From assembly GCA_964016885.1 (NCBI GenBank), contig OZ024748.1:31248001-31312000 (forward strand): a DNA stretch of 64,000 nucleotides. The letters run 5' to 3'. The notes under the pieces were generated by a model. That model made no database searches, was not told where the DNA came from, and was given only the letters and a program-made list of their open reading frames with translations. Made by a program: the position numbers and the translations under genes. Shown piece after piece: positions 21,427-60,137 of this stretch. Every line of letters starts with the position of its first letter. Position 1 is the stretch's first letter. This DNA is from Eledone cirrhosa (lineage: Eukaryota).

Positions 21427-21527
21427 GAAGTGAGTGAATTTGTCACTACTTTAAAACAATAGCTTACGGTCTTCAAAATGCTTTTAATTAAGCATAAAGT
21501 GTATTGCAAAATACATTATATTTACAT

Positions 21528-21577
<50 letters not shown>

Positions 21578-23040: not shown

Positions 23041-24784
23041 ATAATAACCATAAAATAACTTTGAAATATTTTCCTTTCAAAAATATCATTACAATATATC
23101 ATCCCTAAAAATTGAAAATCTTTCGTGCCCATAAGAACCCTATATATTAATTTATAAAGACCAATTATATAGCTTAATTTAACAAAATAAATTAACTACA
23201 AAATTAAATCTATATTATTTTAAAATAATATATAAGTATAAAACAACCAAAAATTAATTATATATATATCTATACCCGATACGAACGAAATTTATAAATT
23301 CCAGTATATATATATTTTTTTTTGATATCTAAATTAACTTAGTATATATTGAAGAAAAAACAAATAATCTAACTAACCTGAGGCAGATCTTGTTATAATA
23401 CCAGAGGCACAAATAAATATTATTATATGATAAATTAAAGTACTTTTATAAGTTATCATAATTAAAATACATTATAACTATATTGATTATAATACGGATT
23501 ATATTACGGATTATATTACGGATTGTATTACGGATTATATTACGGATTTATTTATAAAACAAATAATAATAATTAAATAATAATAAATTTATTAATATCT
23601 TAGTATAGATTTGTTATTTAAAACAATTTTATTTAAAAGCAGGGATACAAATATAGGTTATAACGTATAACATTTATTTATTTAAAAGCAGGGATACAAT
23701 ATAAATTAAAATAATCATATATAATTTAATTAATTAAATAAAATTTAATTTAAAAATAATATTAATTTAGATTTAATGATAATAAAAGAATAGAATTTTA
23801 TTCCACTTTACAAGAAGATTTTCCCAAATTTATATTAAAACCAATTATTAATTATAATTTAATTATAATACACACTCAAATGTCTATATAATAAACTAGC
23901 TACCATAAAAATAGAATAGCATTTCACTACCATTTATTATTAAATATATAACATTACCACGTTAAAAAATCAATATAATAAATAAATCTTCCTATTTCGA
24001 GAACCTAATATATATTTATTAATATTATTAATCTATTATTATTAATCTATTATACATTATTAATCTATTATACAAAAGATACAATCATTAATATTTACTA
24101 TACATTAATTTTTTTAAACACCCTTTTCAGTACAATCAATTTTAACATTCTTCTAACCCTCTTACTAATTCTATTTAAAATTTTTAATCTAAACTATTTA
24201 AATAATAACTATATTATTAACTTTCAAAAATAATTAAATCAATAAATATTTTCTCAACGTAAGTGAGACACATTATACTTATGTTAATTCTTGTAATTTA
24301 TTATCCAGAAACAATTTCCATTACCTCTACTATGTTACGACTTACCTTATCTAAATAACAAGAGTGACGGGCGATATGTACACCCTACAAAACCATTATA
24401 CACACTAATTAAAAATTACTATTAAGTCCAGCTTTCTATAAAAATATATAATTTTAAATCCGGAACAAAATAAAATTAACTATAGTAGCTCATTAAACCT
24501 TTTTTATAAGCTGCATTATGACTTGACATAAAAATTTAAATATTTTCTAGTCTTTTAACATAATTCTTAAAACATAAACTGACGACCGCAATATACAAAC
24601 TGAAATTATATACAATTTCAAAAAAAAGTTAGTTTAAATTGAGGATTATCAAATAAATTAACAAGCTCCCCTAATTGGATATGTAGAACACCAAACTTTT
24701 CAAAAATATCATTACAATATATCATCCCTAAAAATTGAAAATCTTTCGTGCCCATTACACCATAAGAACCCTTAAATAAAATCC

Positions 24785-24839
<55 letters not shown>

Positions 24840-24984
24840 TATTTATTATATAAACATTTACAATTATTATTATTATTATTAATTTTATATACTAAATAAT
24901 CAAAAAAATAATAACCATAATATAACTTTGAAATATTTTCCTTTCAAAAATATCAAACAATATATTAAAACATTTTTTTTTTAA

Positions 24985-26075
24985 ACAATATATATTAATT
25001 TATAAAGACCAATTATATAGCTTAGTTTAACAAAAATAAATTACCTACAAAATTAAATCTATATTATTTTTAAATAATATATAAGTATAAAACAACCAAA
25101 AATTAATTATATATATATCTATACTCGATACGAACGAAATTTATAAATCCCAGTATATATATATTTTTTTTTGATATCTAAATTAACTTAGTATATATTG
25201 AAGAAAAAAACAATTAATCTAACTAACCTGAGGCAGATCTTGTTATAATACCAGAGGCACAGGCCCCAATATTCAATTTATTAAATAAATATTATTATAT
25301 GATAAATTAAAGTACTTTTATAAGTTATCATAATTAAAATACATTATAACTATGTTGATTATAATACTTCAATTACGGATTTATTTATAAAACAAATAAT
25401 AATAATTAAATAATAATAAATTTATTAATATCTTAGTATAAATTTGTTATTTAAAACAATTTTATTTAAAAGCAGGGATACAAATATAGGTTATAACGTA
25501 TAAAATTTATTTATTTAAAAGCAGGCATACAAATATAGGTTATAACGTATAAAATTTATTTATTTATAAGCAGGGATACAATATAAATAAAAATAATCAT
25601 TTATAATTTAATTAATTAAATAAAATTTAATTTAAAAATAATATTAATTTAGATTTAATGATAATAAAAGAATAGAATTTTATTCCACTTTACAAGAAGC
25701 TTTTCCCCCAAATGTATATTAAAACCAATTATTAATTATAATTTAATTATAATACACACTCAAATGTCTATATAATAAACTAGCTACCATAAAAATCGAA
25801 TAGCATTTCACTACCATTTATTATTAAATATATAACTTTACCACGTTAACAAATGAATATAATAAATAAATCTTCCTATTTCGAGAACCTAATATTTATT
25901 TATTAATATTATTAATCTATTATACAAAAGATACAATCATTAATATTTACTATACATTAATTTTTTTAAACACCCTTTTCAGTACAATCAATTTTAACAT
26001 TCTTCTAACCCTCTTACTAATTCTATTTAAAATGTTTAATCTAAACTATTTAAATAATAACTATATTATTAACTT
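24985..26075 (-). pseudogene. rrnL: Mitochondrial 16S rRNA 5' portion (NUMT; representative copy)
   Basis: Lies next to trnV. Minus-strand motifs GTACTGAAAAGG, TTCTCGAAA and AGTGAAATGCTATTCG...GGTAGCTAGTT. The conserved 3' half is absent and the boundary is approximate. Confidence 0.7.
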
Positions 26076-26145
26076 TCAAAAATAATTAAATCAATAAATA
26101 TTTTCTCAACGTAAGTGAGGCACATTATACTTATGTTAATTCTTG
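26076..26145 (-). pseudogene. trnV: Mitochondrial tRNA-Val (TAC) NUMT copy
   Basis: Acceptor stem CAAGAAT/ATTTTTG, anticodon arm CTCAC-TTACG-TTGAG; lies between rrnS and rrnL. Confidence 0.8.
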
Positions 26146-27119
26146 TACTTTATTATATAAATCCAGAAACAATTTCCATTACCTCTACTATTTTAGGACG
26201 TATCTTATCTAAATAACAAGAGTGACGGGCGATATGTACACCCTACAAAACCATTATTCGCATATACACACTAATTAAAAATTACTATTAAGTCCACCTT
26301 TCTATAAAAATATATAATTTTAATTCCGGAACAAAATAAAATTAACTATAGTAGCTCATTAAACCTTTTTTATAAGCTGCATTATGAAATTTAAATATTT
26401 TCTAGTCTTAATTCTTAAAACATAAACTTAATTTTCTAGTCATAATTCTTAAAACATAAACTAACGACAGCAAGATACAAACTGAACTTATATACAATTT
26501 CAAAAAAAAGTTAGTTTAAATTGAGGATTATCAAATAAATTAACAAGCTCCCCTAATTGGATATGTAGAACCGCCTAACTTTTTAAGTTTTAAATAAACA
26601 CGTAATCTTATAAAAGTAAACATAATTCATAATACTCAGGTAAAATAATTTTATTTTTACAAATCAAAATAATAGGGTATCTAATCCTAGTTTATTATTG
26701 AATTTTCAAAGCATAATTTTATATATAAATTTTACCCAAAAACTCATTATAATCTTTTACCTAAAAACTCATTATAATCTTTTACCTAAAAACTCATTAT
26801 AATCTTTCCTCATAAATAATATTATATTAATTTATTTTCAACCAAATCTTTTTAATCTTAATTATTTGTATAACCGCAGATGCTGGCACAAATTTATCCA
26901 ATTACCACATATAATTTCTGTGTAATAATTTCTGTATAAGAATTTATTGTACAAATATATATACTGATAAAAATTATAAAACCTCTATATTAAATCCTAT
27001 TTAATAAGATAATATATTATATTTAAATTATAAATATATTAAATAAATAATCTAAATATATAAATATATAATCAACGTTATATATATATAATTAAAAACA
27101 AACCAAAGTCAAATTTAAA
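26146..27119 (-). pseudogene. rrnS: Mitochondrial 12S rRNA NUMT copy (representative)
   Basis: GTGCCAGCATCTGCGGTTA, AAACTAGGATTAGATACCCTA and GTGTACATATCGCCCGTCACTC on the minus strand; GTCGTAACA is intact in other copies (e.g. ~24335). Confidence 0.92.
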
Positions 27120-27590
27120 TAATAAAGAGATATAAATATATCCATTTTCGAGGTATGAACCCAACAGCTTTTTTAGCTTACTTTATTATAAAGTTTCAAC
27201 AAAAATGTATTTTTAAATTTGCAATTTAATATTTTAATATAAATTATAAAACCATGAGAAAGTTACTACTTATAAATAGATTTACAATCTACCGACTAAA
27301 TTATTTCGACCACCTCATACAGAATTTAAACAACAAATATTTATTTTAAATTTTGAAAATTTACAGTTTATTTTAACTTAAAACTCTTTACAAAAAAAGG
27401 ACTTGAACCTTTCCCTTAAAGATCAAAGCTTTACATGCCCATACACCAAATTATATTATTTTATTTAACATTATATCTAAACCTATTATTTAGAAAATAA
27501 TTATACTATTTAAACTAATAAAATATATTCTCAATAAATTATTAAAATTCATCCCTAAAAATTGAAAATCTTTCGTGCCCATAAGAACCC
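27120..27590 (-). pseudogene. Mitochondrial tRNA cluster M-C-Y-W-Q-G-E (NUMT; ~11 copies in window)
   Basis: trnM(CAT) 27120-27187, trnC(GCA) 27190-27253, trnY(GTA) 27253-27318, trnW(TCA) 27319-27387, trnQ(TTG) 27388-27455. trnG is ~27456-27525 (TCC intact in later copies). trnE(TTC) is complete at 38369-38439. Confidence 0.88.
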
Positions 27591-27823
27591 TTAAATAAAA
27601 TCCATATTTTATATATATATATATACATATATATTATTTATTTACAATTATTATTATTATTAATATATACTTCCTAATTTTATATACTAAATAATCAAAA
27701 AAATAATAACCATAAAATAACTTTGAAATATTTTCCTTTCAAAAATATCATTACAATATATCATCCCTAAAAATTGAAAATCTTTCGTGCCCATTACACG
27801 ATAAGAACCCTTAAATAAAATCA

Positions 27824-27876
<53 letters not shown>

Positions 27877-27901
27877 TATTTATTTATTATATAAACATTT
27901 A

Positions 27902-28010
27902 GTTCAAATCCGACTGAGGTTGACTTTGTCTTTCATCCTTACGGGGTCGATAAAATAAAGTACCAGTAATGCACTGGGTAATTGCTGGCGTTGTGCCTAA
28001 AGTAGAAACA
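27902..28010 (+). mobile_element. 5'-truncated Octopus-type tRNA-derived SINE with 16-bp TSD (duplicated at 32861-32969)
   Basis: B box GTTCAAATCC and body TTTCATCCTTACGGGGTCGATAAAATAAAGTACCAGT; TSD ATTATATAAACATTTA at 27886-27901 and 28011-28026. Confidence 0.8.
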
Positions 28011-29745
28011 ATTATATAAACATTTACAATTATTATTATTATTATTAATTTTATATACTAAATAATCAAAAAAATAATAACCATAAAATAACTTTGAAAT
28101 ATTTTCCTTTCAAAAATATCAAACAATATATTACATTTTTTTTTAAACAATATATATTAATTTATAAAGACCAATTATATAGCTTAATTTAACAAAAATA
28201 AATTAACTACAAAATTAAATCTATATTATTTTTAAATAATATATAAGTATAAAACAAACAAAAATTAATTATATATATATCTATACTCGATACGAACAAA
28301 ATTTATAAATCCCAGTATATATATATATTTTTTTGATACAATTAATCTAACTAATCTGAGGCTGATCTTGTTATAACACCAGAGGCACAGGCCCCAATAT
28401 TTAATTTATTAAATAAATATTATTATATGATAAATTAAAGTACTTTTATAAGTTATCATAATTAAAATACATTATAACTATATTGATTATAATACTTCAA
28501 TTACGGATTTATTTATAAAACAAATAATAATAATTAAATAATAATAAATTTATTAATATCTTAGTATAGATTTGTTATTTAAAACAATTTTATTTAAAAG
28601 CAGGGATACAAATATAGGTTATAACGTATAACATTTATTTATTTAAAAGCAGGGATACAATATAAATTAAAATAATCATATATAATTTAATTAATTAAAT
28701 AAAATTTAATTTAAAAATAATATTAATTTAGATTTAATGATAATAAAAGAATAGAATTTTATTCCACTTTACAAGAAGATTTTCCCAAATTTATATTAAA
28801 ACCAATTATTAATTATAATTTAATTATAATACACACTCAAATGTCTATATAATAAACTAGCTACCATAAAAATAGAATAGCATTTCACTACCATTTATTA
28901 TTAAATATATAACATTACCACGTTAAAAAATCAATATAATAAATAAATCTTCCTATTTCGAGAACCTAATATATATTTATTAATATTATTAATATATTAT
29001 TATTAATCTATTATACATTATTAATCTATTATACAAAAGATACAATCATTAATATTTACTATACATTAATTTTTTTAAACACCCTTTTCAGTACAATCAA
29101 TTTTAACATTCTTCTAACCCTCTTACTAATTCTATTTAAAATTTTTAATCTAAACTATTTAAATAATAACTATATTATTAACTTTCAAAAATAATTAAAT
29201 CAATAAATATTTTCTCAACGTAAGTGAGACACATTATACTTATGTTAATTCTTGTAATTTATTATCCAGAAACAATTTCCATTACCTCTACTATGTTACG
29301 ACTTACCTTATCTAAATAACAAGAGTGACGGGCGATATGTACACCCTACAAAACCATTATACACACTAATTAAAAATTACTATTAAGTCCAGCTTTCTAT
29401 AAAAATATATAATTTTAAATCTGGAACAAAATAAAATTAACTATAGTAGCTCATTAAACCTTTTTTATAAGCTGCATTATGACTTGACATAAAAATTTAA
29501 ATATTTTCTAGTCTTTTAACATAATTCTTAAAACATAAACTGACGACCGCAATATACAAACTGAAATTATATACAATTTCAAAAAAAAGTTAGTTTAAAT
29601 TGAGGATTATCAAATAAATTAACAAGCTCCCCTAATTGGATATGTAGAACACCAAACTTTTCAAAAATATCATTACAATATATCATCCCTAAAAATTGAA
29701 AATCTTTCGTGCCCATTACACCATAAGAACCCTTAAATAAAATCC

Positions 29746-29798
<53 letters not shown>

Positions 29799-32782
29799 TA
29801 TTTATTATATAAACATTTACAATTATTATTATTATTATTAATTTTATATACTAAATAATCAAAAAAATAATAACCATAATATAACTTTGAAATATTTTCC
29901 TTTCAAAAATATCAAACAATATATTAAAACATTTTTTTTTTAAACAATATATATTAATTTATAAAGACCAATTATATAGCTTAGTTTAACAAAAATAAAT
30001 TACCTACAAAATTAAATCTATATTATTTTTAAATAATATATAAGTATAAAACAACCAAAAATTAATTATATATATATCTATACTCGATACGAACGAAATT
30101 TATAAATCCCAGTATATATATATTTTTTTTTGATATCTAAATTAACTTAGTATATATTGAAGAAAAAAACAATTAATCTAACTAACCTGAGGCAGATCTT
30201 GTTATAATACCAGAGGCACAGGCCCCAATATTCAATTTATTAAATAAATATTATTATATGATAAATTAAAGTACTTTTATAAGTTATCATAATTAAAATA
30301 CATTATAACTATGTTGATTATAATACTTCAATTACGGATTTATTTATAAAACAAATAATAATAATTAAATAATAATAAATTTATTAATATCTTAGTATAA
30401 ATTTGTTATTTAAAACAATTTTATTTAAAAGCAGGGATACAAATATAGGTTATAACGTATAAAATTTATTTATTTAAAAGCAGGCATACAAATATAGGTT
30501 ATAACGTATAAAATTTATTTATTTATAAGCAGGGATACAATATAAATAAAAATAATCATTTATAATTTAATTAATTAAATAAAATTTAATTTAAAAATAA
30601 TATTAATTTAGATTTAATGATAATAAAAGAATAGAATTTTATTCCACTTTACAAGAAGCTTTTCCCCCAAATGTATATTAAAACCAATTATTAATTATAA
30701 TTTAATTATAATACACACTCAAATGTCTATATAATAAACTAGCTACCATAAAAATCGAATAGCATTTCACTACCATTTATTATTAAATATATAACTTTAC
30801 CACGTTAACAAATGAATATAATAAATAAATCTTCCTATTTCGAGAACCTAATATTTATTTATTAATATTATTAATCTATTATACAAAAGATACAATCATT
30901 AATATTTACTATACATTAATTTTTTTAAACACCCTTTTCAGTACAATCAATTTTAACATTCTTCTAACCCTCTTACTAATTCTATTTAAAATGTTTAATC
31001 TAAACTATTTAAATAATAACTATATTATTAACTTTCAAAAATAATTAAATCAATAAATATTTTCTCAACGTAAGTGAGGCACATTATACTTATGTTAATT
31101 CTTGTACTTTATTATATAAATCCAGAAACAATTTCCATTACCTCTACTATTTTAGGACGTATCTTATCTAAATAACAAGAGTGACGGGCGATATGTACAC
31201 CCTACAAAACCATTATTCGCATATACACACTAATTAAAAATTACTATTAAGTCCACCTTTCTATAAAAATATATAATTTTAATTCCGGAACAAAATAAAA
31301 TTAACTATAGTAGCTCATTAAACCTTTTTTATAAGCTGCATTATGAAATTTAAATATTTTCTAGTCTTAATTCTTAAAACATAAACTTAATTTTCTAGTC
31401 ATAATTCTTAAAACATAAACTAACGACAGCAAGATACAAACTGAACTTATATACAATTTCAAAAAAAAGTTAGTTTAAATTGAGGATTATCAAATAAATT
31501 AACAAGCTCCCCTAATTGGATATGTAGAACCGCCTAACTTTTTAAGTTTTAAATAAACACGTAATCTTATAAAAGTAAACATAATTCATAATACTCAGGT
31601 AAAATAATTTTATTTTTACAAATCAAAATAATAGGGTATCTAATCCTAGTTTATTATTGAATTTTCAAAGCATAATTTTATATATAAATTTTACCCAAAA
31701 ACTCATTATAATCTTTTACCTAAAAACTCATTATAATCTTTTACCTAAAAACTCATTATAATCTTTCCTCATAAATAATATTATATTAATTTATTTTCAA
31801 CCAAATCTTTTTAATCTTAATTATTTGTATAACCGCAGATGCTGGCACAAATTTATCCAATTACCACATATAATTTCTGTGTAATAATTTCTGTATAAGA
31901 ATTTATTGTACAAATATATATACTGATAAAAATTATAAAACCTCTATATTAAATCCTATTTAATAAGATAATATATTATATTTAAATTATAAATATATTA
32001 AATAAATAATCTAAATATATAAATATATAATCAACGTTATATATATATAATTAAAAACAAACCAAAGTCAAATTTAAATAATAAAGAGATATAAATATAT
32101 CCATTTTCGAGGTATGAACCCAACAGCTTTTTTAGCTTACTTTATTATAAAGTTTCAACAAAAATGTATTTTTAAATTTGCAATTTAATATTTTAATATA
32201 AATTATAAAACCATGAGAAAGTTACTACTTATAAATAGATTTACAATCTACCGACTAAATTATTTCGACCACCTCATACAGAATTTAAACAACAAATATT
32301 TATTTTAAATTTTGAAAATTTACAGTTTATTTTAACTTAAAACTCTTTACAAAAAAAGGACTTGAACCTTTCCCTTAAAGATCAAAGCTTTACATGCCCA
32401 TACACCAAATTATATTATTTTATTTAACATTATATCTAAACCTATTATTTAGAAAATAATTATACTATTTAAACTAATAAAATATATTCTCAATAAATTA
32501 TTAAAATTCATCCCTAAAAATTGAAAATCTTTCGTGCCCATAAGAACCCTTAAATAAAATCCATATTTTATATATATATATATACATATATATTATTTAT
32601 TTACAATTATTATTATTATTAATATATACTTCCTAATTTTATATACTAAATAATCAAAAAAATAATAACCATAAAATAACTTTGAAATATTTTCCTTTCA
32701 AAAATATCATTACAATATATCATCCCTAAAAATTGAAAATCTTTCGTGCCCATTACACGATAAGAACCCTTAAATAAAATCA

Positions 32783-32835
<53 letters not shown>

Positions 32836-35800
32836 TATTTATTTATTATATAAACATTTAGTTCAAATCCGACTGAGGTTGACTTTGTCTTTCATCCTTA
32901 CGGGGTCGATAAAATAAAGTACCAGTAATGCACTGGGTAATTGCTGGCGTTGTGCCTAAAGTAGAAACAATTATATAAACATTTACAATTATTATTATTA
33001 TTATTAATTTTATATACTAAATAATCAAAAAAATAATAACCATAAAATAACTTTGAAATATTTTCCTTTCAAAAATATCAAACAATATATTACATTTTTT
33101 TTTAAACAATATATATTAATTTATAAAGACCAATTATATAGCTTAATTTAACAAAAATAAATTAACTACAAAATTAAATCTATATTATTTTTAAATAATA
33201 TATAAGTATAAAACAAACAAAAATTAATTATATATATATCTATACTCGATACGAACAAAATTTATAAATCCCAGTATATATATATATTTTTTTGATACAA
33301 TTAATCTAACTAATCTGAGGCTGATCTTGTTATAACACCAGAGGCACAGGCCCCAATATTTAATTTATTAAATAAATATTATTATATGATAAATTAAAGT
33401 ACTTTTATAAGTTATCATAATTAAAATACATTATAACTATATTGATTATAATACTTCAATTACGGATTTATTTATAAAACAAATAATAATAATTAAATAA
33501 TAATAAATTTATTAATATCTTAGTATAAATTTGTTATTTAAAACAATTTTATTTAAAAGCAGGGATACAAATATAGGTTATAACGTATAAAATTTATTTA
33601 TTTAAAAGCAGGGATACAAATATAGGTTATAACGTATAAAATTTATTTATTTAAAAGCAGGAATACAAATATAGGTTATAACGTATAAAATTTGTTTATT
33701 TAAAAGCAGGGATACAATATAAATTAAAATAATCATATATAATTTAATTAATTAAATAAAATGTAATTTAAAAATAATATTAATTTAGATTTAATGATAA
33801 TAAAAGAATAGAATTTTATTCCAATTTACAAGAAGCTTTTCGCCCAAATTTATATTAAAACCAATTATTAATTATAATTTAATTATAATACACACTCAAA
33901 TGTCTATATAATAAACTAGCTACCATAAAAATCGATACCATTTATTATTAAATATATAACTTTACCACGTTAACAAATCAATATAATAAATAAATCTTCC
34001 TATTACGAGAACCTAATATTTAATTATTAATATCATTAATCTATTATACAAAAGATACAATCATTAATATTTACTATACATTAATTTTTTTAAACACCCT
34101 TTTCAGTACAATCAATTTTAACATTCTTCTAACCCTCTTACTAATTCTATTTAAAATTTTTAATCTAAACTATTTAAATAATAACTATATTATTAACTTT
34201 CAAAAATAATTAAATCAATAAATATTTTCTCAACGTAAGTGAGACACATTATAATTATGTTAATTCTTGTACTTTATTATATAAATCCAGAAACAATTTC
34301 CATTACCTCTACTATGTTACGACTTATCTTATCTAAATGACAAGAGTGACGGGCGATATGTACACCATACAAAACCATTATTCACATATACACACTAATT
34401 AAAAATTACTATTAAGTCCACCTTTCTATAAAAATATATAATTTTAAATCCGGAACAAAATAAAATTAACTATAGTAGCTCATTAAACCTTTTTTATAAG
34501 CTGCATTATGACTTGACATAAAAATTTAAATATTTTCTAGTCTTTTAACATAATTCTTAAAACATAAACTGACGACAGCAATATACAAACTGAACTTATA
34601 TACAATTTCAAAAAAAAGTTAGTTTAAATTGAGGAATATCAAATAAATTAACAAGCTCCCTTAATTGGATATGTAGAACCGCCAAACTTTTTAATTTTAA
34701 ATAAACACGTAATCTTATAAAAGTAAACATAATTCATAATACTCAGGTAAAATAAATTTATTTTTACAAATCAAAATAATAGGGTATCTAATCCTAGTTT
34801 ATTATTGAATTTTCAAAGCATTTATAATAAAGAAAACAAAAAAAAACAATCAAATTTTATATATGAATTTTACCTAAAAACTCATTATAATCTTTCCTCA
34901 TAAATAATATTATATTACTTTATTTTCAACCAAAACTTTTTAATCTTAATTATTTGTATAACCGCAGATGCTGGCACAAATTTATCCAATTACCACATAT
35001 AATTTCTGTGTAATAATTTCTGTATAAGAATTTATTGTACAAATATATATACTGATAAAAATTATAAAACCTCTATATTAAATCCTATTTAATAAGATAA
35101 TATATTATATTTAAATTATAAATATATTAAATAAATAATCTAAATATATAAATATATAATCAACGTTATATATATATAATAAAAAACAAACCAAAGTCAA
35201 ATTTAAATAATAAAGAGATATAAATATATCCATTTTCGAGGTATGAACCCAACAGCTTTTTTAGCTTACTTTATTATAAAGTTTCAACAAAAATGTATTT
35301 TTAAATTTGCAATTTAATATTTTAATATAAATTATAAAACCATGAGAAAGTTACTACTTATAAATAAATTTACAATCTACCGACTAAATTATTTCGACCA
35401 CCTCATACAGAATTTAAACAACAAATATTTATTTTAAATTTTGAAAATTTACAGTTTATTTTAACTTAAAACTATTTACAAAAAAAGGACTTGAACCTTT
35501 CCCTTAAAGATCAAAACTTTACATGCCCAAACACCAAATTATATTATTTTATTTAACATTATATCTAAACCTATTATTTGGAAAATAATTATACTATTTA
35601 TACTAATAAAATATATTCTCAATAAATTATTAAAATTCATCCCTAAATTTGAAAATCTTTCGTGCCCATAAGAACCCTTAAATAAAATCCATATTTTATA
35701 TATATATATATACATATATATTATTTATTTACAATTATTATTATTATTAATATATACTTCCTAATTTTATATACTAAATAATCAAAAAAATAATAACCAT

Positions 35801-37864: not shown

Positions 37865-37925
<61 letters not shown>

Positions 37926-38454: not shown

Positions 38455-38493
<39 letters not shown>

Positions 38494-39601: not shown

Positions 39602-39607
39602 TATAAT

Positions 39608-42690: not shown

Positions 42691-42770
<80 letters not shown>

Positions 42771-43282: not shown

Positions 43283-43313
<31 letters not shown>

Positions 43314-45616: not shown

Positions 45617-45699
<83 letters not shown>

Positions 45700-46210: not shown

Positions 46211-46266
<56 letters not shown>

Positions 46267-46460
46267 TATTTACAATTATTATTATTATTAATATATAATT
46301 CCTAATTTTATATTTTTTTGATTATTTATAATCAAAAAAATAGTAACCATAAAATAACTTTGAAATATTTTCCTTTCAAAAATATCATTACAATATATCA
46401 TCCCTAAAAATTGAAAATCTTTCGTGCCCATTACACCATAAGAACCCTTAAATAAAATCC

Positions 46461-46501
<41 letters not shown>

Positions 46502-48519: not shown

Positions 48520-48564
<45 letters not shown>

Positions 48565-49076
48565 CTAACATGTATAAAATTACAAAAATTAAAAACAAAC
48601 CAAAGACAAATTTAAATAATAAAGAGATATAAATATATCCATTTTCGAGGTATGAACCCAACAGCTTTTTTACCTTACTTTATTATAAAGTTTCAACAAA
48701 AATGTATTTTTAAATTTGCAATTTAATATTTTAATATAAATTATAAAACCATGAGAAAGTTACTACTTATAAATAGATTTACAATCTACCGACTAAATTA
48801 TTTCGACCATCTCATACAGAATTTAAACAACAAATATTTATTTTAAATTTTGAAAATTTACAGTTTATTTTAACTTTAAACTCTTTACAAAAAGATCAAA
48901 ATTTTACATGCCCATACACCAAATTATATTATTTTATTTAACATTATATCTAAACCTATTATTTGGAAAATAATTATACTATTTATACAAATAAAATATA
49001 TTCTCAATAAACTATTAACATTCATCCCTAAAAATTGAAAATCTTTCGTAAGAACCCTTAAATAAAATCCATATGT

Positions 49077-49109
<33 letters not shown>

Positions 49110-49303
49110 TATTTACAATTATTATTATTATTAATATATAATTCCTAATTTTATATTTTTTTGATTATTTATAATCAAAAAAATAGTAACCATAAAATAA
49201 CTTTGAAATATTTTCCTTTCAAAAATATCATTACAATATATCATCCCTAAAAATTGAAAATCTTTCGTGCCCATTACACCATAAGAACCCTTAAATAAAA
49301 TCC

Positions 49304-49342
<39 letters not shown>

Positions 49343-52119
49343 TATTTATTATATAAACATTTACAATTATTATTATTATTATTAATTTTATATACTAAAT
49401 AATAAAAAAAATAATAACCATAAAATAACTTTGAAATATTTTCCTTTCAAAAATATCAAACAATATATTAAAACATTTTTTTTTTAAACAATATATATTA
49501 ATTTATAAAGACCAATTACAAATTAACTACAAAATTAAATCTATATTATTTTGAAATAATATATAAGTATAAAACAACCAAAAATTAATTATATATATAT
49601 CTATAATCGATACGAACGAAATTTATAAATCCCAGTATATATATATATTTTTTTATATATGAATTAACTTAGTATATATTGAAAAAAAAACAATTAATCT
49701 AACTAACCTGAGGCAGATCTTGTTATAATACCAGAGGCACAGGCCCCAATATTCAATTTATTAAATAAATATTATTATATGATAAATTAAAGTACTTTTA
49801 TAAGTTATCATAATTAAAATACATTATAACTATATACTTACGGATTTATTTATAAAACAAATAATAATAATTAAATAATAATAAATTTATTAATATCTTA
49901 GTATAAATTTGTTATTTAAAACAATTTTATTTAAAAGCAGGCATACAAATATAGGTTATAACGTATAAAATTTATTTATTTAAAAGCAGGGATACAAATA
50001 TAGGATATAACGTATAAAATTTATTTTTTTAAAAGCAGGGATACAATATAAATTAAAATAATCATATATAATTTAATTAATTAAATAAAATTTAATTTAA
50101 AAATAATATTAATTTAGATTTAATGATAATAAAAGAATAGAATTTTATTCCACTTTACAAGAAGCTTTTCCCCCAAATTTATATTAAAACCAATTATTAA
50201 TTATAATTTAATAATACACACTCAAATGTCTATATAGTAAACTAGCTACCATAAAAATCGATACCATTTATTATTAAATATATAACTTTAACACGTTAAC
50301 AAATCAATATAATAAATAAATCTTCCTATTTCGAGAACCCAATATTTATTTATTAATATTATTAATCTATTATACAAAAGATACAATCATTAATATTTAC
50401 TATACATTAATTTTTTTAAACACCCTTTTCAGTACAATCAATTTTAACATTCTTCTAACCCTCTATTTAAAATTTTTAATCTAATCTATATAAATAATAA
50501 CTATATTATTAACTTTCAAAAATAATTAAATCAATAAATATTTTCTCAACGTAAGTGAGACACATTATACTTATGTTAATTCTTGTACTTATTATATAAA
50601 TCCAGAAACAATTTCTATTTCTTATCTAAATAACAAGAGTGACGGGCGATATGTACACCCTACAAAACCATTATTCACATATACACACTAATTAAAATTA
50701 CTATTAAGTCCACCTTTCTATAAAAATATATAATTTTAAATCCGGAACAAAATAAAATTAACTATAGCTCATTAAACCTTTTTATAAGCTGCATAAAAAT
50801 TTAAATATTTTCTAGTCTTTTAACATAATTCTTTAAACATAAACTGACGACAGCAATATACAAACTGAACTTATATACAATTTCAAAAAAAAAGTTAGTT
50901 TAAATTGAGGATTATCAAATAAATTAACAAGCTCCCCTAATTGGATATGTAGAACCGCCAAACTTTTTAAGTTTTAAATAAACACGTAATCTTATAAAAG
51001 TAAACATAATTCATAATACTCAGGTAAAATAACTTTATTTTTACAAATCAAAATAATAGGGTATCTAATCCTAGTTTATTATCGAATTTTCACAGCATTT
51101 ATAATAAAGAAAACAAAAAAAAACAATCAAATTTTATATATAAATTTTACCTAAAGACTCATTATATTCTTTCCTCATAAATAATATTATATTACTTTAT
51201 TTTCAACCAAATCTTTTTAATCTTAATTATTTGTATAACCGTAGATGCTGGCACAAATTTATCCAACTACCACATATATATACTGATAAAAATTATAAAA
51301 CCACTATATTAAATCCTATTTAATATCATAATATTATATTTAAATTATAAATATATTAAACAAATAATCTAAATATATAAATATATAATCAACTTTATAT
51401 ATATATATATATAATATCCAACATGTATAAAATTACAAAAATTAAAAACAAACCAAAGTCAAATTTAAATAATAAAGAGATATAAATATATCCATTTTCG
51501 AGGTATGAACCCAACAGCTTTTTTAGCTTACTTTATTATAAAGTTTCAACAAAAATGTATTTTTAAATTTGCAATTTAATATTTTAATATAAATTATAAA
51601 ACCATGAGACAGTTACTACTTATAAATAGATTTACAATCTACCGACTAAATTATTTCGACCACCTCATACAGAATTTAAACAACAAATATTTATTTTAAA
51701 TTTTGAAAATTTACAGTTTAAACTCTTTACAAAAAGATCAAAACTTTACATGCCCATACACCAAATTATATTATTTTATTTAACATTATATCTAAACCTA
51801 TTATTTGGAAAATAATTATACTATTTATACTAATAAAATATATTCTCAATAAATTATTAACATTCATCCCTAAAAATTGAAAATCTTTCGTAAGAACCCT
51901 TAAATAAAATCCATATTTTATATATATATATTATTTATTTACAATTATTATTATTATTAATATATACTTCCTAATTTTATATTTTTTTGATTCAAAAAAA
52001 TAATAACCATAAAATAACTTTGAAATATTTTCCTTTCAAAAATATCATTACAATATATCATCCCTAAAAATTGAAAATCTTTCGTGCCCATTACACCATA
52101 AGAAACCTTAAATAAAATC

Positions 52120-52213
<94 letters not shown>

Positions 52214-53260
52214 TATTTATTATATAAACATTTACAATTATTATTATTATTATTAATTTTAAATTTTAATCAAAAAAATAATAACCATAAAATAATTTTA
52301 ATCAAAAAAATAATAACCATAGATTAATATTAAAATCTAAATTTTAATCAAAAAAATAATAACCATAAAATAACTTTGAAATATTTTCCTTTCAAAAATA
52401 TCAAACAATATATTAAAACATTTTTTTTTAAACAATATATATTAATTTATAAAGACCAATTATAAATTAACTACAAAATTAAATCTATATTATATTGAAA
52501 TAATATATAGGTATAAAACAACCAAAAATTAATTATATATATATCTATACTCGATACGAACGAAATTTATAAATCCCAGTATATATATATATTTTTTTAT
52601 ATATACATTAACTTAGTATATATTGAAGAAAAAAACAATTAATCTAATTAACCTGAGGCAGATCTTGTTATAATACCAGAGGCACAGGCCCCAATATTCA
52701 ATTTATTAAATAAATATTATTATATGATAAATTAAAGTACTTTTATAAGTTAACATAATTAAAATACATTATAACTATATACTTACGGATTTATTTATAA
52801 AACAAATAATAATAATTAAATAATAATAAATTTATTAATATCTTAGTATAAATTTGTTATTTAAAACAATTTTATTTAAAAGCAGGGATACAAATATAGG
52901 TTATAACGTATAAAATGTATTTATTTAAAAGCAGAGATACAAATATATTTGTATAATAATCATATATAATTTAATTAATTAAATAAAATTTAATTTAAAA
53001 ATAATATTAATTTAGATTTAATGATAATAAAAGAATAGAATTTTATTCCACTTTACAAGAAGCTTTTCCCCCAAATTTATATTGAAACCAATTATTAATT
53101 ATAATTTAATTATAATACACACCCAAATGTCTATATAATAAACTAGCTACCATAAAAATCGATACCATTTATTATTAAATATATAACTTTACCACGTTAA
53201 CAAATCAATATAATAAATAAATCTTCCTATTTCGAGAACCTAATATTTATTTATTAATAT

Positions 53261-53368
53261 AATTGTTTCTACTTTAGGCACAAGGCCAGCAATTTCCCAG
53301 TACATTACTGGTACTTTATTTTATCTACCCCGTAAGGATGAAAGGCAAAGTTAACCTTGGCGGGATTT
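53261..53368 (-). mobile_element. Second truncated SINE insertion of the same family (duplicated at 59144-59251)
   Basis: Reverse complement resembles 27902-28010; inserted in the rrnL-derived segment; no clear TSD. Confidence 0.78.
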
Positions 53369-54436
53369 ATACAAAAGATACAATCATTAATATTTACTAT
53401 ACATTAATTTTTTTAAACACCCTTTTCAGCACAATCAATTTTAACATTCTTCTAACCCTCTATTTAAAATTTTTAATCTAAACTATATAAATAATAACTA
53501 TATTATTAACTTTCAAAAATAATTAAATCAATAAATATTTTCTCAACGTAAGTGAGACACATTATACTTATGTTAATTCTTGTACTTTATTATATAAATC
53601 CAGAAACAATTTCTATTTCTTATCTAAATAACAAGAGTGACGGGCGATATGTACACCTTACAAAACCATTATTCACATATACACACTAATTAAAAATTAC
53701 TATTAAGTCCACCTTTCTATAAAAATATATAATTTTAATTCCGGAACAAAATAAAATTAACTATAGTAGCTCATTAAACCTTTTTTATAAGCTGCATAAA
53801 AATTTAAATATTTTCTAGTCTTTTAACATAATTCTTAAAACATAAACTGACGACAGCAATATACAAACTGAACTTATATACAATTTCAAAAAAAAGTTAG
53901 TTTAAATTGAGGATTATCAAATAAATTAAAAAAGCTCCCCTAATTGGATATTTAGAACCGCCAAACTTTTTAAGTTTTAAATAAACACGTAATCTTATAA
54001 AAGTAAACATAATTCATAATACTGAGGTAAAATAACTTTATTTTTACAAATCAAAATAATAGGGTATCTAATCCTTGTTTATTATTGAATTTTCAAAGCA
54101 TTTATAATAAAGGAAAACAAAAAAAACAATCAAATTTTATATATAAATTTTACCTAAAAACTCATTATAATCTTTCCTCATAAATAATATTATATTACTT
54201 TATTTTCAACCAAATCTTTTTAATCTTAATTATTTGTATAACCGCAGATGCTGGCACAAATTTATCCAATTACCACATATAATTTCTGTATAAAACTCCC
54301 ATTTATTGTACAAATATATATACTGATAAAAATTATAAAACCTCTATATTAAATCCTATTTAATAACATAATATATTATATTTAAATTATAAATATATTA
54401 AATAAATAATCTAAATATATAAATATATAATCAACG

Positions 54437-54477
<41 letters not shown>

Positions 54478-54989
54478 CTAACATGTATAAAATTACAAAA
54501 ATTAAAAACAAACCAAAGACAAATTTAAATAATAAAGAGATATAAATATATCCATTTTCGAGGTATGAACCCAACAGCTTTTTTACCTTACTTTATTATA
54601 AAGTTTCAACAAAAATGTATTTTTAAATTTGCAATTTAATATTTTAATATAAATTATAAAACCATGAGAAAGTTACTACTTATAAATAGATTTACAATCT
54701 ACCGACTAAATTATTTCGACCATCTCATACAGAATTTAAACAACAAATATTTATTTTAAATTTTGAAAATTTACAGTTTATTTTAACTTTAAACTCTTTA
54801 CAAAAAGATCAAAATTTTACATGCCCATACACCAAATTATATTATTTTATTTAACATTATATCTAAACCTATTATTTGGAAAATAATTATACTATTTATA
54901 CAAATAAAATATATTCTCAATAAACTATTAACATTCATCCCTAAAAATTGAAAATCTTTCGTAAGAACCCTTAAATAAAATCCATATGT

Positions 54990-55022
<33 letters not shown>

Positions 55023-55216
55023 TATTTACAATTATTATTATTATTAATATATAATTCCTAATTTTATATTTTTTTGATTATTTATAATCAAAAAAATAGT
55101 AACCATAAAATAACTTTGAAATATTTTCCTTTCAAAAATATCATTACAATATATCATCCCTAAAAATTGAAAATCTTTCGTGCCCATTACACCATAAGAA
55201 CCCTTAAATAAAATCC

Positions 55217-55255
<39 letters not shown>

Positions 55256-58034
55256 TATTTATTATATAAACATTTACAATTATTATTATTATTATTAATT
55301 TTATATACTAAATAATAAAAAAAATAATAACCATAAAATAACTTTGAAATATTTTCCTTTCAAAAATATCAAACAATATATTAAAACATTTTTTTTTTAA
55401 ACAATATATATTAATTTATAAAGACCAATTACAAATTAACTACAAAATTAAATCTATATTATTTTGAAATAATATATAAGTATAAAACAACCAAAAATTA
55501 ATTATATATATATCTATAATCGATACGAACGAAATTTATAAATCCCAGTATATATATATATTTTTTTATATATGAATTAACTTAGTATATATTGAAAAAA
55601 AAACAATTAATCTAACTAACCTGAGGCAGATCTTGTTATAATACCAGAGGCACAGGCCCCAATATTCAATTTATTAAATAAATATTATTATATGATAAAT
55701 TAAAGTACTTTTATAAGTTATCATAATTAAAATACATTATAACTATATACTTACGGATTTATTTATAAAACAAATAATAATAATTAAATAATAATAAATT
55801 TATTAATATCTTAGTATAAATTTGTTATTTAAAACAATTTTATTTAAAAGCAGGCATACAAATATAGGTTATAACGTATAAAATTTATTTATTTAAAAGC
55901 AGGGATACAAATATAGGATATAACGTATAAAATTTATTTTTTTAAAAGCAGGGATACAATATAAATTAAAATAATCATATATAATTTAATTAATTAAATA
56001 AAATTTAATTTAAAAATAATATTAATTTAGATTTAATGATAATAAAAGAATAGAATTTTATTCCACTTTACAAGAAGCTTTTCCCCCAAATTTATATTAA
56101 AACCAATTATTAATTATAATTTAATAATACACACTCAAATGTCTATATAGTAAACTAGCTACCATAAAAATCGATACCATTTATTATTAAATATATAACT
56201 TTAACACGTTAACAAATCAATATAATAAATAAATCTTCCTATTTCGAGAACCCAATATTTATTTATTAATATTATTAATCTATTATACAAAAGATACAAT
56301 CATTAATATTTACTATACATTAATTTTTTTAAACACCCTTTTCAGTACAATCAATTTTAACATTCTTCTAACCCTCTATTTAAAATTTTTAATCTAATCT
56401 ATATAAATAATAACTATATTATTAACTTTCAAAAATAATTAAATCAATAAATATTTTCTCAACGTAAGTGAGACACATTATACTTATGTTAATTCTTGTA
56501 CTTATTATATAAATCCAGAAACAATTTCTATTTCTTATCTAAATAACAAGAGTGACGGGCGATATGTACACCCTACAAAACCATTATTCACATATACACA
56601 CTAATTAAAATTACTATTAAGTCCACCTTTCTATAAAAATATATAATTTTAATTCCGGAACAAAATAAAATTAACTATAGCTCATTAAACCTTTTTATAA
56701 GCTGCATAAAAATTTAAATATTTTCTAGTCTTTTAACATAATTCTTTAAACATAAACTGACGACAGCAATATACAAACTGAACTTATATACAATTTCAAA
56801 AAAAAAGTTAGTTTAAATTGAGGATTATCAAATAAATTAACAAGCTCCCCTAATTGGATATGTAGAACCGCCAAACTTTTTAAGTTTTAAATAAACACGT
56901 AATCTTATAAAAGTAAACATAATTCATAATACTCAGGTAAAATAACTTTATTTTTACAAATCAAAATAATAGGGTATCTAATCCTAGTTTATTATCGAAT
57001 TTTCACAGCATTTATAATAAAGAAAACAAAAAAAAACAATCAAATTTTATATATAAATTTTACCTAAAGACTCATTATATTCTTTCCTCATAAATAATAT
57101 TATATTACTTTATTTTCAACCAAATCTTTTTAATCTTAATTATTTGTATAACCGTAGATGCTGGCACAAATTTATCCAACTACCACATATATATACTGAT
57201 AAAAATTATAAAACCACTATATTAAATCCTATTTAATATCATAATATATTATATTTAAATTATAAATATATTAAACAAATAATCTAAATATATAAATATA
57301 TAATCAACTTTATATATATATATATATAATATCCAACATGTATAAAATTACAAAAATTAAAAACAAACCAAAGTCAAATTTAAATAATAAAGAGATATAA
57401 ATATATCCATTTTCGAGGTATGAACCCAACAGCTTTTTTAGCTTACTTTATTATAAAGTTTCAACAAAAATGTATTTTTAAATTTGCAATTTAATATTTT
57501 AATATAAATTATAAAACCATGAGACAGTTACTACTTATAAATAGATTTACAATCTACCGACTAAATTATTTCGACCACCTCATACAGAATTTAAACAACA
57601 AATATTTATTTTAAATTTTGAAAATTTACAGTTTAAACTCTTTACAAAAAGATCAAAACTTTACATGCCCATACACCAAATTATATTATTTTATTTAACA
57701 TTATATCTAAACCTATTATTTGGAAAATAATTATACTATTTATACTAATAAAATATATTCTCAATAAATTATTAACATTCATCCCTAAAAATTGAAAATC
57801 TTTCGTAAGAACCCTTAAATAAAATCCATATTTTATATATATATATTATTTATTTACAATTATTATTATTATTAATATATACTTCCTAATTTTATATTTT
57901 TTTGATTCAAAAAAATAATAACCATAAAATAACTTTGAAATATTTTCCTTTCAAAAATATCATTACAATATATCATCCCTAAAAATTGAAAATCTTTCGT
58001 GCCCATTACACCATAAGAAACCTTAAATAAAATC

Positions 58035-58086
<52 letters not shown>

Positions 58087-60137
58087 TATTTATTATATAA
58101 ACATTTACAATTATTATTATTATTATTAATTTTAAATTTTAATCAAAAAAATAATAACCATAAAATAATTTTAATCAAAAAAATAATAACCATAGATTAA
58201 TATTAAAATCTAAATTTTAATCAAAAAAATAATAACCATAAAATAACTTTGAAATATTTTCCTTTCAAAAATATCAAACAATATATTAAAACATTTTTTT
58301 TTAAACAATATATATTAATTTATAAAGACCAATTATAAATTAACTACAAAATTAAATCTATATTATATTGAAATAATATATAGGTATAAAACAACCAAAA
58401 ATTAATTATATATATATCTATACTCGATACGAACGAAATTTATAAATCCCAGTATATATATATATTTTTTTATATATACATTAACTTAGTATATATTGAA
58501 GAAAAAAACAATTAATCTAATTAACCGGAGGCAGATCTTGTTATAATACCAGAGGCACAGGCCCCAATATTCAATTTATTAAATAAATATTATTATATGA
58601 TAAATTAAAGTACTTTTATAAGTTAACATAATTAAAATACATTATAACTATATACTTACGGATTTATTTATAAAACAAATAATAATAATTAAATAATAAT
58701 AAATTTATTAATATCTTAGTATAAATTTGTTATTTAAAACAATTTTATTTAAAAGCAGGGATACAAATATAGGTTATAACGTATAAAATGTATTTATTTA
58801 AAAGCAGAGATACAAATATATTTGTATATATTTGTATAATAATCATATATAATTTAATTAATTAAATAAAATTTAATTTAAAAATAATATTAATTTAGAT
58901 TTAATGATAATAAAAGAATAGAATTTTATTCCACTTTACAAGAAGCTTTTCCCCCAAATTTATATTGAAACCAATTATTAATTATAATTTAATTATAATA
59001 CACACCCAAATGTCTATATAATAAACTAGCTACCATAAAAATCGATACCATTTATTATTAAATATATAACTTTACCACGTTAACAAATCAATATAATAAA
59101 TAAATCTTCCTATTTCGAGAACCTAATATTTATTTATTAATATAATTGTTTCTACTTTAGGCACAAGGCCAGCAATTTCCCAGTACATTACTGGTACTTT
59201 ATTTTATCTACCCCGTAAGGATGAAAGGCAAAGTTAACCTTGGCGGGATTTATACAAAAGATACAATCATTAATATTTACTATACATTAATTTTTTTAAA
59301 CACCCTTTTCAGCACAATCAATTTTAACATTCTTCTAACCCTCTATTTAAAATTTTTAATCTAAACTATATAAATAATAACTATATTATTAACTTTCAAA
59401 AATAATTAAATCAATAAATATTTTCTCAACGTAAGTGAGACACATTATACTTATGTTAATTCTTGTACTTTATTATATAAATCCAGAAACAATTTCTATT
59501 TCTTATCTAAATAACAAGAGTGACGGGCGATATGTACACCTTACAAAACTAATTAAAAATTACTATTAAGTCCACCTTTCTATAAAAATATATAATTTTA
59601 ATTCCGGAACAAAATAAAATTAACTATAATTTAATTATAATACACACCCAAATGTCTATATAATAAACTAGCTACCATAAAAATCGATACCATTTATTAT
59701 TAAATATATAACTTTACCACCTTTTTTATAAGCTGCATAAAAATTTAAATATTTTCTAGTCTTTTAACATAATTCTTAAAACATAAACTAACGACAGCAA
59801 TATACAAACTGAACTTATATACAATTTCAAAAAAAAGTTAGTTTAAATTGAGGATTATCAAATAAATTAACAAGCTCCCTTAATTGGATATGTAGAACCG
59901 CCAAACTTTTTAAGTTTTAAATAAACACGTAATCTTATAAAAGTAAACATAATTCATAATACTCAGGTAAAATAACTTTATTTTTACAAATCAAAATAAT
60001 AGGGTATCTAATCCTAGTTTATTATTGAATTTTCAAAGCATTTATAATAAAGAAAACATATTACCTAAAAACTCATTATAATCTTTCCTCATAAATAATA
60101 TTATATTACTTTATTTTCAACCAAATCTTTTTAATCT

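Follow-up and report, generated by a model that had tools for sequence, protein, structure and literature searches.

A mitochondrial segment of 2.83 kb probably arrayed in tandem in the nuclear genome of Eledone cirrhosa

Tandem arrays of nuclear mitochondrial DNA (NUMTs) are known in few animals. A locus on a 60.6 Mb nuclear chromosome (C8) of Eledone cirrhosa makes it testable whether they are inserted as ready-made concatemers or amplified in the nucleus. Part of this locus lies in the 64,000-nucleotide stretch of DNA analysed here (the window). The locus probably consists of a 2.83-kb mitochondrial segment repeated in tandem in nuclear DNA, together with a tail, and derives from one long mtDNA insert whose control-region (CR)-rRNA end was soon multiplied. 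Since the ancestral sequence is known, the tail has been kept and two single-copy NUMTs in the same genome serve as controls, the steps by which a macrosatellite arose can be put in order.

The array block measures 71,934 bp, of which 61,977 bp are derived from mtDNA, and runs from 23041 to extended position 94974 (C8:31,342,974), extended coordinates being the C8 position minus 31,248,000. A sequence-only reading of the window had ended the array at 60137; a satellite interrupts unit 13 there, and the array continues for a further ~35 kb. When the window is compared by BLAST with the mitogenome contig of this assembly (G000:C1796, 16,147 bp), mtDNA in a single orientation covers 36,316 of the 37,097 bases from 23041 to 60137; this search and the self-BLAST were run with masking, unmasked output being dominated by TA repeats.

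At the assembly level this mtDNA belongs to a nuclear chromosome: high-copy nuclear elements flank it and insertions lie inside it. The array sits mid-chromosome (31.3 of 60.6 Mb), next to a 310-bp satellite (51.6 copies) and other tandem repeats. The retroelement on the left flank gave 1668 first-look candidates, of which 40 were scored (best 98%), and other copies extend beyond the break. It is presumably Penelope-like, judging by a GIY-YIG-like motif. A Pfam search returned no families for this element or for the LINE end within the array, and RVT_1 matched a LINE at 18324-19262; a PDB search gave nothing meaningful. An element split by the NUMT insertion was sought between both flanks and none was found, only a related satellite occurring on both sides, so that no target-site duplication can be assigned to the NUMT. 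Its original left junction has been lost, and the founder insert is therefore known in part only.

The repeat unit corresponds to mt 8867→6042 (2,826 bp, 17.5% of the 16,147-bp mitogenome) and comprises ~395 bp from the start of rrnL, then V, rrnS, M-C-Y-W-Q-G-E and a control region that lacks its last ~215 bp. Genes were annotated from the mitogenome contig, whose order by ARAGORN and table-5 ORFs is rrnL-V-rrnS-M-C-Y-W-Q-G-E-CR-cox3-K-A-R-N-I-nad3-S1-nad2-cox1, and not from tRNA scans; with bacterial or general models, one scan gave 4 trnQ and another 6 tRNAs, and trnQ was found in only 4 of the 13 window units (Rfam, ARAGORN). The octopod-type order suggested earlier agrees with that of an octopod mitogenome in the available portion of PMC13025693. 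The KARNI and MCYWQGE blocks are found in chitons too.

An exact 28-mer across the CR→rrnL junction has 10 occurrences in the window and 14 assembly-wide, all of them at the array locus; it is absent from mtDNA even with 5 errors, and a reversed control gave 0. Four variant junctions bring the count for the window to 13 and that for the whole array to 18, which bears out both the ~13-14 head-to-tail rrnL-V-rrnS-M-C-Y-W-Q-G-E-CR copies and the direct joining of the control region into rrnL that had been read from the window. With one eroded start at extended 82050, there are 19 unit starts across the whole array as assembled. The trnE/CR duplication (mt 6774→7008) noted earlier is real, with 10 matches to its junction probe. 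Unit spacing is 1.9-3.2 kb in 14 of 18 intervals and longer, through inserts, in the other 4. A kilobase-size unit repeated head-to-tail at a single locus is what is expected of a macrosatellite, and the array would be an additional case of the cat-type tandem NUMT kind. It is no mega-NUMT in the strict sense of near-complete mitogenome units, at 2,826 of 16,147 bp; cox1, nad1, nad6 and the 3′ part of rrnL are missing from the whole insert.

Table 1. Features of the array and its left flank (window positions; "extended" as defined in the text).
Feature	Position	Strand	Remark
High-copy retroelement piece	21580..23040	-	Ends abruptly exactly at left edge of array
Leading partial unit, CR mt 6824→6042 with remnant of trnE/CR duplication junction	23041..23803	+	mt-BLAST
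Unit 1, short type (1.88 kb)	23804..25685	+	Lacks rrnS 5′ half through trnG
Unit 2, full, with trnE/CR duplication	25686..28764	+	mt-BLAST
SINE-like insert in unit 2	27901-28013		Target-site duplication
Units 3 and 4	28765..33821	+	Copy of units 1 and 2 from a recent block duplication
Unit 5, without trnE/CR duplication	33822..36565	+	mt-BLAST
Unit 6	36566..38790	+	Enters tail copy through CR deletion mt 6581→5909
Second tail copy, cox3-K-A-R-N-I-nad3-(374-bp deletion)-nad2	38791..41272	+	Back to CR at 41273
LINE-like 3′ end	~40050-40344		Inside second tail copy
CR piece and unit 7 (start 42015)	41273..44354	+	mt 8239→7647 deleted
Units 8 and 9	44355..50150	+	Period 2,902
Units 10-13 (starts 50151, 53049, 56064, 58932)	50151..60136	+	Within 5.9-kb block duplication
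Reversed SINE-like piece	53261-53368 and 59144-59251		In region of units 10-13
AT-rich palindromic ~0.8-kb nuclear satellite in rrnS	60137 to extended 64357		Encloses mt piece 61298-61827
Units past window	Starts extended 66097, 71318, 76596, 79191, 82050 (eroded), 85217		
Last CR continuous with cox3, then tail	Extended 87224-94974		

Turnover by unequal exchange or related copying, as had been proposed, is visible in block duplications and mosaic units. The recent block duplications span 2.9-5.9 kb: units 1 and 2 versus 3 and 4 have a period of 4,959 and are identical over 3,776 bp, and units 8 and 9 differ by 1 substitution in 1,977 aligned sites. The deletion in unit 1 joins into the trnE/CR duplication junction, and unit 5 likely lost the duplication by recombination between both copies. 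Beyond the window, unit and satellite together form a higher-order repeat of 5.2 kb, and there are two further SINE-like inserts. The earlier claim of nuclear insertions likewise stands for the SINE-like pieces, the LINE end and the satellite, some with target-site duplications; the palindromic satellite family recurs on C25 as an array of ~28 kb. The 2.5 kb at 38791-41272, by contrast, are mitochondrial, a second copy of part of the tail and no transposon; the LINE end within them, which we take to be RTE-type, accounts for only ~295 bp.

The last control region runs into cox3 and ~6.7 kb of other mitochondrial genes, 5.1 kb of it single-copy, in the order nad3/nad2 pieces, cox2-D-atp8-atp6-F-nad5-H-nad4, a cox2 piece, nad4-nad4L-T-S2-cob and a cob piece. 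The cox2 piece (extended 93145-93557) keeps the array orientation, a 53-bp patch at 92276 alone being inverted. Deletions of 30, 21 and 7 bp, as well as 20 derived sites, are common to both cox3-nad2 copies, which in 1,299 sites have 6 and 4 changes of their own. A control-region-bearing sub-genomic circle had been suggested as the source; the insert holds more than circle repeats, and because the last unit, without a junction, is continuous with the cox3-cob tail, a bare minicircle is insufficient; a multimer may have arisen at about the time of insertion.

All 21 fixed rRNA/tRNA differences from mtDNA (1,694 sites) and 34 of the 42 in the control region (707 sites) are also present in NUMTs on C2, C7 or C1, so that at most ~15% of the nuclear substitution predates the first copying. 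A tree of 17 units resolves ~10 lineages on branches of 0.7-1.4%, with near-zero, poorly supported inner branches, and is star-like; the CR tree has mtDNA as its sole outgroup, and its derived percentages were set aside. The sharing of fixed differences with independent NUMTs and the shape of the tree together suggest that copying likely began near insertion. Deletions of 10, 22 and 13 bp in the rRNA genes are present in 13/18, 13/18 and 12/17 copies, a 12-bp deletion in 11/18 copies partitions them in conflict with the others, and control-region deletions of 21, 10 and 5 bp occur in 10/20. Neither mtDNA nor C2 nor C7 has the deletions that mark the first or the second trnE/CR copy (21 of 30 anchors aligned).

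Decay is of nuclear type, with frameshifting deletions and changes at codon positions 1 and 2 (27/2,692). Array polymorphisms comprise 77 transitions and 159 transversions, mtDNA-private coding changes 71 and 7. Microhomology at deletions averages 1.92 versus 1.11 when shuffled, exceeding all 2,000 shuffles (65 events).

From these data the following order may be proposed. A long mtDNA piece would have integrated beside AT-rich satellites and then gained the ~235-bp trnE/CR duplication and a few deletions; a single CR→rrnL join would have been followed by rapid expansion to ~10 copies. Decay by transversion-rich substitution and microhomology-flanked deletion would have ensued, together with SINE, LINE and satellite insertions. 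Finally, part of the tail would have been duplicated at a distance of ~50 kb, and unequal exchange or break-induced copying would have produced recent block duplications of 2.9-5.9 kb as well as mosaic units, bringing the unit starts to 19. We infer this order from features that are shown: where the unit begins and ends, a junction of one type, a single locus, the tail, deletions that are shared and nested, insertions and block duplications. The array likely has no function. The sequencing runs listed as sharing its words include no RNA run, which says nothing about expression.

Compatible with this account, and unlikely without being far-fetched, is a real locus whose copy number or order is partly wrong through false duplication or collapse. 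The identical blocks of 3,776 and 4,612 bp could be assembler duplications or collapses, and one block pair differs by 1 substitution in 5,144 aligned sites; in the available parts of the reports, cats and Drosophila show a wide gap between assembled and measured counts. The remaining block pairs, however, differ by 8-13 substitutions and several gaps, ~10 lineages lying 2-3% apart cannot be assembler copies, and the array contains no N gap (the closest, 200 N, is at extended 122452). Logan contigs of X1 and X4 follow the mitochondrial path only, with a loose end at the junction, and none spans it. Among the RAD reads there (13 and 14 in two runs), one (X8) crosses by ~10 bases, below the 31-letter bar, and reads starting within rrnL are ambiguous between mtDNA and array.

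Improbable, in our judgement, is a multimer made in the mitochondrion, by partial tandem duplication or as a rolling-circle minicircle product joined to a longer molecule, and inserted as multiple copies. Moritz and Brown reportedly described in 1986 D-loop and rRNA sequence duplicated in tandem inside lizard mtDNA, a segment of the same kind, unlike the Eledone array in that the latter is nuclear and decayed. Concatemer integration has been proposed for the Drosophila paulistorum mega-NUMT, according to the portion of PMC13565137 available. Most of the control region is inside the unit, and the lack of any array-specific fixed substitution in 1,694 rRNA/tRNA sites and the star-like tree also fit a pre-formed multimer. 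Against it stand the three multi-base rRNA deletions found in 12-13 of 17-18 copies and the control-region deletions found in 10 of 20, which imply serial copying of damaged units, with deletions of the type seen in later decay; the cox3-cob tail, moreover, is beyond the reach of a bare circle.

There is very little to commend co-option of the array, for instance as a centromere sequence, a nucleator of heterochromatin or a source of small RNA: it would suit a mid-chromosome site adjoined by the 310-bp satellite and other tandem repeats, and the cat and chimpanzee arrays are near centromeres (PMC13629686, as far as its available text goes), but this array spans only 72 kb, its deep lineages are not homogenised and its rRNA and tRNA genes are decaying. 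Least credible of all is an artefact stitched from mitochondrial reads, for although mtDNA is very deep (word depths of 831 and 6,462 in the contigs) and the junction is not bridged by any contig, such reads cannot supply unit alleles common to other NUMTs and unlike assembled mtDNA, nested deletions, nuclear elements with target-site duplications or a transversion-rich spectrum, and X1-X3, perhaps the source sample, hold 0.27-0.33 of sampled words, a weak excess over what mtDNA (0.188) and the LINE (0.069) explain; the shares of X5-X7 (0.05-0.07) are no evidence either way.

In array copies, private substitutions amount to ~1.4% and multi-base indels to 3-5 per kb; the two single-copy NUMTs, which come from related donors, show 0.2-0.4% and hardly any indels. 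The NUMT on C7 (0.2%, no multi-base indels) agrees with the array majority allele at 199 of 199 CR sites and differs at 5 of 1,341 in rRNA/tRNA, and the donors were therefore almost one haplotype. The single-copy tail exceeds the C2 NUMT, which is ~14 kb long and contains cox1, in transversions (20 vs 5) and private multi-base indels (21 vs 1). Derivation of the array from this C2 NUMT within the nucleus was rejected: shared coding differences fall at 64 third versus 15 first or second positions, and there is no large deletion in common. We tentatively entertain the array as a natural mutation reporter of a strongly mutagenic nuclear locus. If so, decay would be several-fold faster at tandem NUMT loci than at dispersed ones, and the divergence of NUMTs could not serve as a clock; should the excess be a property of the locus, NUMT dating calls for care.

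The comparisons that follow reflect those parts of the cited reports that are available. The domestic cat Numt (Lopez 1994, as described in 10.1101/2023.06.19.545568) is a 7.9-kb tandem macrosatellite on chromosome D2, with 7-15 copies in long-read assemblies (10.1101/2023.06.19.545568, 10.1101/2022.04.04.487049). It resembles the Eledone array in having a unit that covers part of the mitogenome and begins in the control region, and in its head-to-tail order at one locus, variable units, shared deletions, inter-repeat recombination and false mtDNA variants. The Eledone unit, unlike that of the cat, is 2.83 kb, without a protein gene and with most of the control region, and the array has a gene tail and higher-order blocks and has acquired SINEs, the end of a LINE and a nuclear satellite. 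The Dpau Mega-NUMT of Drosophila paulistorum has near-whole mitogenome units, 12 assembled and 30-60 estimated (PMC13565137). It too is an invertebrate multicopy cluster, single and mostly in one orientation, with transposon insertions and an adjoining satellite, and its copies reflect a mitotype other than the resident one; it was checked by depth and FISH, whereas the Eledone unit, as read from the assembly, is 17.5% of the mitogenome. The 76-kb chimpanzee array, with whole-genome-scale copies identical in alignable parts (PMC13629686), and human mega-NUMTs (PMC7897518, PMC7142097, PMC6563850) are of similar total size and consist of tandem mtDNA copies able to mimic heteroplasmy; unlike the chimpanzee copies, those of Eledone are 2-3% diverged and heavily deleted. 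A literature search of titles and abstract openings, with subscription journals mostly outside it, found no cephalopod tandem NUMT array.

The warning that the array would confound 12S barcoding is partly borne out: 14 templates carry both primer sites of what we take to be the classical pair (11 are distinct, 80-98% identical to mtDNA). The classical 16S sites lie outside the unit. The C2 NUMT is a larger barcode risk than the array, and where nuclear DNA dominates a sample its cox1 and the distinct 12S templates could mimic variants.

The window (C8:31,248,001-31,312,000 of the 3.0-Gb Eledone cirrhosa assembly G000) was analysed together with 20 kb to its left and 70 kb to its right, where positions above 64000 are extended coordinates. 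The assembly's own mitogenome contig, C1796 (16,147 bp), to which mt coordinates refer, has the order rrnL-V-rrnS-M-C-Y-W-Q-G-E-control region-cox3-K-A-R-N-I-nad3-S1-nad2-cox1-cox2-D-atp8-atp6-F-nad5 according to ARAGORN and table-5 ORFs; as the sequence-only reading held, this agrees with the order given for most octopods in the available text of PMC13025693. Frames in C1796 are broken in nad3, cob and nad4 (at about 4717, 12016, 12305 and 13555-13619), several of the breaks being homopolymer or TA runs where the C2 NUMT, and at 4717 and 12305 also C8, differs by a small indel; they are therefore likely assembly errors.

In masked BLAST, mtDNA matches tile 23041-94974, all in a single orientation except for one 53-bp patch, and the segment list assigns 61,977 of the 71,934 bp to mtDNA. 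The sequence-only reading had confined the array to 23041..60137, and its mitochondrial origin is borne out for 36,316 of these 37,097 bp, but its right end is not: at 60137 a nuclear palindromic satellite merely breaks rrnS, and mtDNA continues from 64358 to 94974. The unit, mt 8867→6042, joins the control region (CR) to rrnL with at most about one base of exact overlap. A junction 28-mer matches exactly 14 times, always at the C8 locus (reversed control 0), four further junctions carry small changes and one more is eroded by deletion, giving 19 unit starts in all; 13 junctions lie inside the window, in keeping with the 13-14 copies first estimated. The internal duplication of trnE and the CR start, also anticipated, corresponds to a second junction (mt 6774→7008). 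Two units are short, and one has lost mt 8239→7647. At the right end the CR runs on into cox3, followed by a rearranged tail of other mitochondrial genes as far as cob. The tail's cox3-nad2 stretch has a second copy within the array, and both carry cox3 deletions of 30, 21 and 7 bp, a 374-bp nad3-nad2 deletion and 20 derived sites, with 6 and 4 private sites in 1,299; a LINE end is found in the window's copy only, not in the tail copy.

Features of the locus and related sequences in G000 (window or extended coordinates unless a contig is named)
Feature	Position	Remarks
Inverted repeat	1-4899	1,009 bp (2204-3211 / 3891-4899) at 99.9%; another, 362 bp, at 100%
LINE	17500-19770	RVT_1 domain, a few stops
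Inverted repeat, ~630 bp	19942-20620	encloses a non-mitochondrial tRNA-like element (20446-20513)
Tandem repeat, 243/317 bp	20618-21540	left of insert; related to the 310-bp repeat
SINE-like pieces	27901, 53261, 80103, 82336	first two later doubled by block duplications
Second cox3-nad2 copy	38791-41272
Satellite, AT-rich, ~0.8 kb	60137-64000	made up of inverted blocks, with short inverted ends at the insertion here; occurs both dispersed and arrayed; may be of foldback type
Same satellite	C25:19,938,000-19,966,000; C8:31,026,000
Nuclear sequence, ~610 bp	83680-84790	1.8 tandem copies at a TA run of the CR
Tandem repeat, 310 bp	96467-114520	right of insert; 99% homogeneous over 16 kb
NUMT, ~14 kb	C2:345,128,192-345,142,360	single-copy; most of mitogenome including cox1, 95-97%; one 1.6-kb deletion
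NUMT, 3.2 kb	C7:86,772,949-86,776,114	mt 9060-10062 joined to 6621-8601; own SINE-like insert
nad4 matches	C257:9,250-10,125	one ~100-bp stretch has several close hits here; may be a further small tandem NUMT or an AT-rich repeat matching by chance

In the assembly, the array is embedded in nuclear sequence. Its left end adjoins a truncated high-copy retroelement, and its right end TA repeats and a 310-bp satellite of 51.6 copies. The interrupting satellite belongs to a family with 427 first-look candidates, 39 of them scored, and an array of ~28 kb on C25; it is also included in a 5.2-kb higher-order repeat right of 64358. Nuclear element insertions had been proposed, and the SINE-like pieces uphold this, those at 27901 and 82336 with clear target-site duplications.

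An unlikely alternative is assembly from mitochondrial reads. The divergence of array copies from mtDNA is 2.6-5.4% where segments are mainly rRNA/tRNA and 8-12% where they are CR. Outside low-complexity stretches and at sites with at least 8 copies, the NUMTs on C2, C7 or C1 share 21 of 21 fixed array differences among 1,694 rRNA/tRNA sites and 34 of 42 among 707 CR sites; the fixed differences are old mitochondrial alleles. Variation among copies comprises 77 transitions and 159 transversions, against 71 and 7 for mitochondrial change. Neither the shared alleles nor the transversion-rich variation can derive from mitochondrial reads. Read evidence is weak. Runs X1-X3, which may be the source sample, contain 0.33, 0.28 and 0.27 of 501 sampled words, and X4 contains 0.17; mtDNA accounts for a share of 0.188 and the LINE for 0.069. 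The junction check covered 4 of 10 listed runs and one 221-base region, with a filter that removes some records: Logan contigs of X1 and X4, which drop rare variants, yielded only a mitochondrial contig with a loose end, and among 13 and 14 RAD reads (X8, X9) one X8 read passes the junction by about 10 bases and carries the array allele at 36600. Assembly duplication could account for the stretches of 3,776 and 4,612 bp that are identical, although other block pairs are 8-13 substitutions apart, and the copy number is best regarded as an assembly count.

No nuclear substitution is fixed across the array where about 20 would be expected per 1,694 sites; therefore at most ~15% of nuclear change predates the first copying. 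In a rrnL-V-rrnS tree of 17 units (each covering at least 70% of columns) about 10 lineages with branches of 0.7-1.4% radiate from near-zero inner branches of low support. Deletions of 10, 22 and 13 bp are common to 13/18, 13/18 and 12/17 copies, and CR deletions of 21, 10 and 5 bp to 10/20; a 12-bp deletion in 11/18 conflicts with their partition. Each trnE/CR copy has typical deletions not seen in mtDNA, C2 or C7 (21 of 30 anchors aligned, 9 lacking an end anchor), and the duplication is present in the last unit also. Among 65 deletions of at least 5 bp, microhomology is in excess (1.92 vs 1.11). From these patterns we infer that a short phase of damage was followed by formation of one junction, fast expansion and then slow turnover with recombination. 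The minicircle source suggested by the sequence-only reading fails in its bare form because of the tail; what inserted may already have been duplicated in part or a concatemer, as proposed for Drosophila paulistorum in the accessible part of PMC13565137.

The array has changed more than the NUMTs with which it was compared. The donor haplotype of the C7 NUMT nearly equals its own: C7 never departs from the array majority in 199 CR sites and does so at 5 of 1,341 rRNA/tRNA sites, against 6 of 204 and 21 of 1,363 for mtDNA. Over 1,215 sites in common, private changes number 2 in C7 and 5 in C2; the mean distance of 19 array segments from the majority is 1.36%. Indels of at least 3 bp number 3-9 per kb in 14 of 16 long array segments (1.2 and 0 in the remaining two); in the same segments of C7 none occurs outside TA repeats, except one deletion common to all NUMTs. 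Over 1,346 tail codons, private first and second position changes number 27 in C8 and 7 in C2, tail transversions 20 and 5, and multi-base indels 22 and 2, with one shared. A single-lineage mitochondrial clock would allow an estimated age ratio of about 1.55 (third-position transitions), and the observed ratios lie above it (transversions, p 0.035; indels, p 0.0003). The C8 and C2 donors are, however, about 1.6% apart at third positions, so C8 may be older, its mitochondrial lineage having been irregular or replaced. The excess as a property of the locus is a lead, from two comparison NUMTs and no outgroup mitogenomes. Against C1796, the C8 tail, C2 and C7 also have many alleles in common; for C8 and C2 these make up 4.8% at third codon positions. 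The sharing exceeds what the nuclear decay of the NUMTs suggests and might record a replaced mitochondrial lineage.

The array belongs to a known, uncommon kind of tandem NUMT, with an unusually readable history, and adds one lead on locus-specific mutation. The closest known case is the cat Numt, which the sequence-only reading had cited as an example, a variable tandem array of a partial, control-region-linked unit (10.1101/2023.06.19.545568; 10.1101/2022.04.04.487049) that, in the parts of these sources available, has shared deletions and recombination as C8 does. Arrays reported in Drosophila paulistorum (PMC13565137) and chimpanzee (PMC13629686) are, in the portions available, of whole-genome units, unlike the partial unit here. 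Titles and abstract beginnings yielded no cephalopod tandem NUMT, which genome notes could mention.

As for the confounding of 12S barcoding, the multiple templates were found. mtDNA is deep in both runs that gave contigs, with word depths of 831 and 6,462, which do not give a copy number. With classical 12S and 16S primers, the array holds 14 12S templates, 11 of them distinct, 80-98% identical to mtDNA; the 16S sites are absent from it, but the C7 NUMT has both and C2 the forward one.
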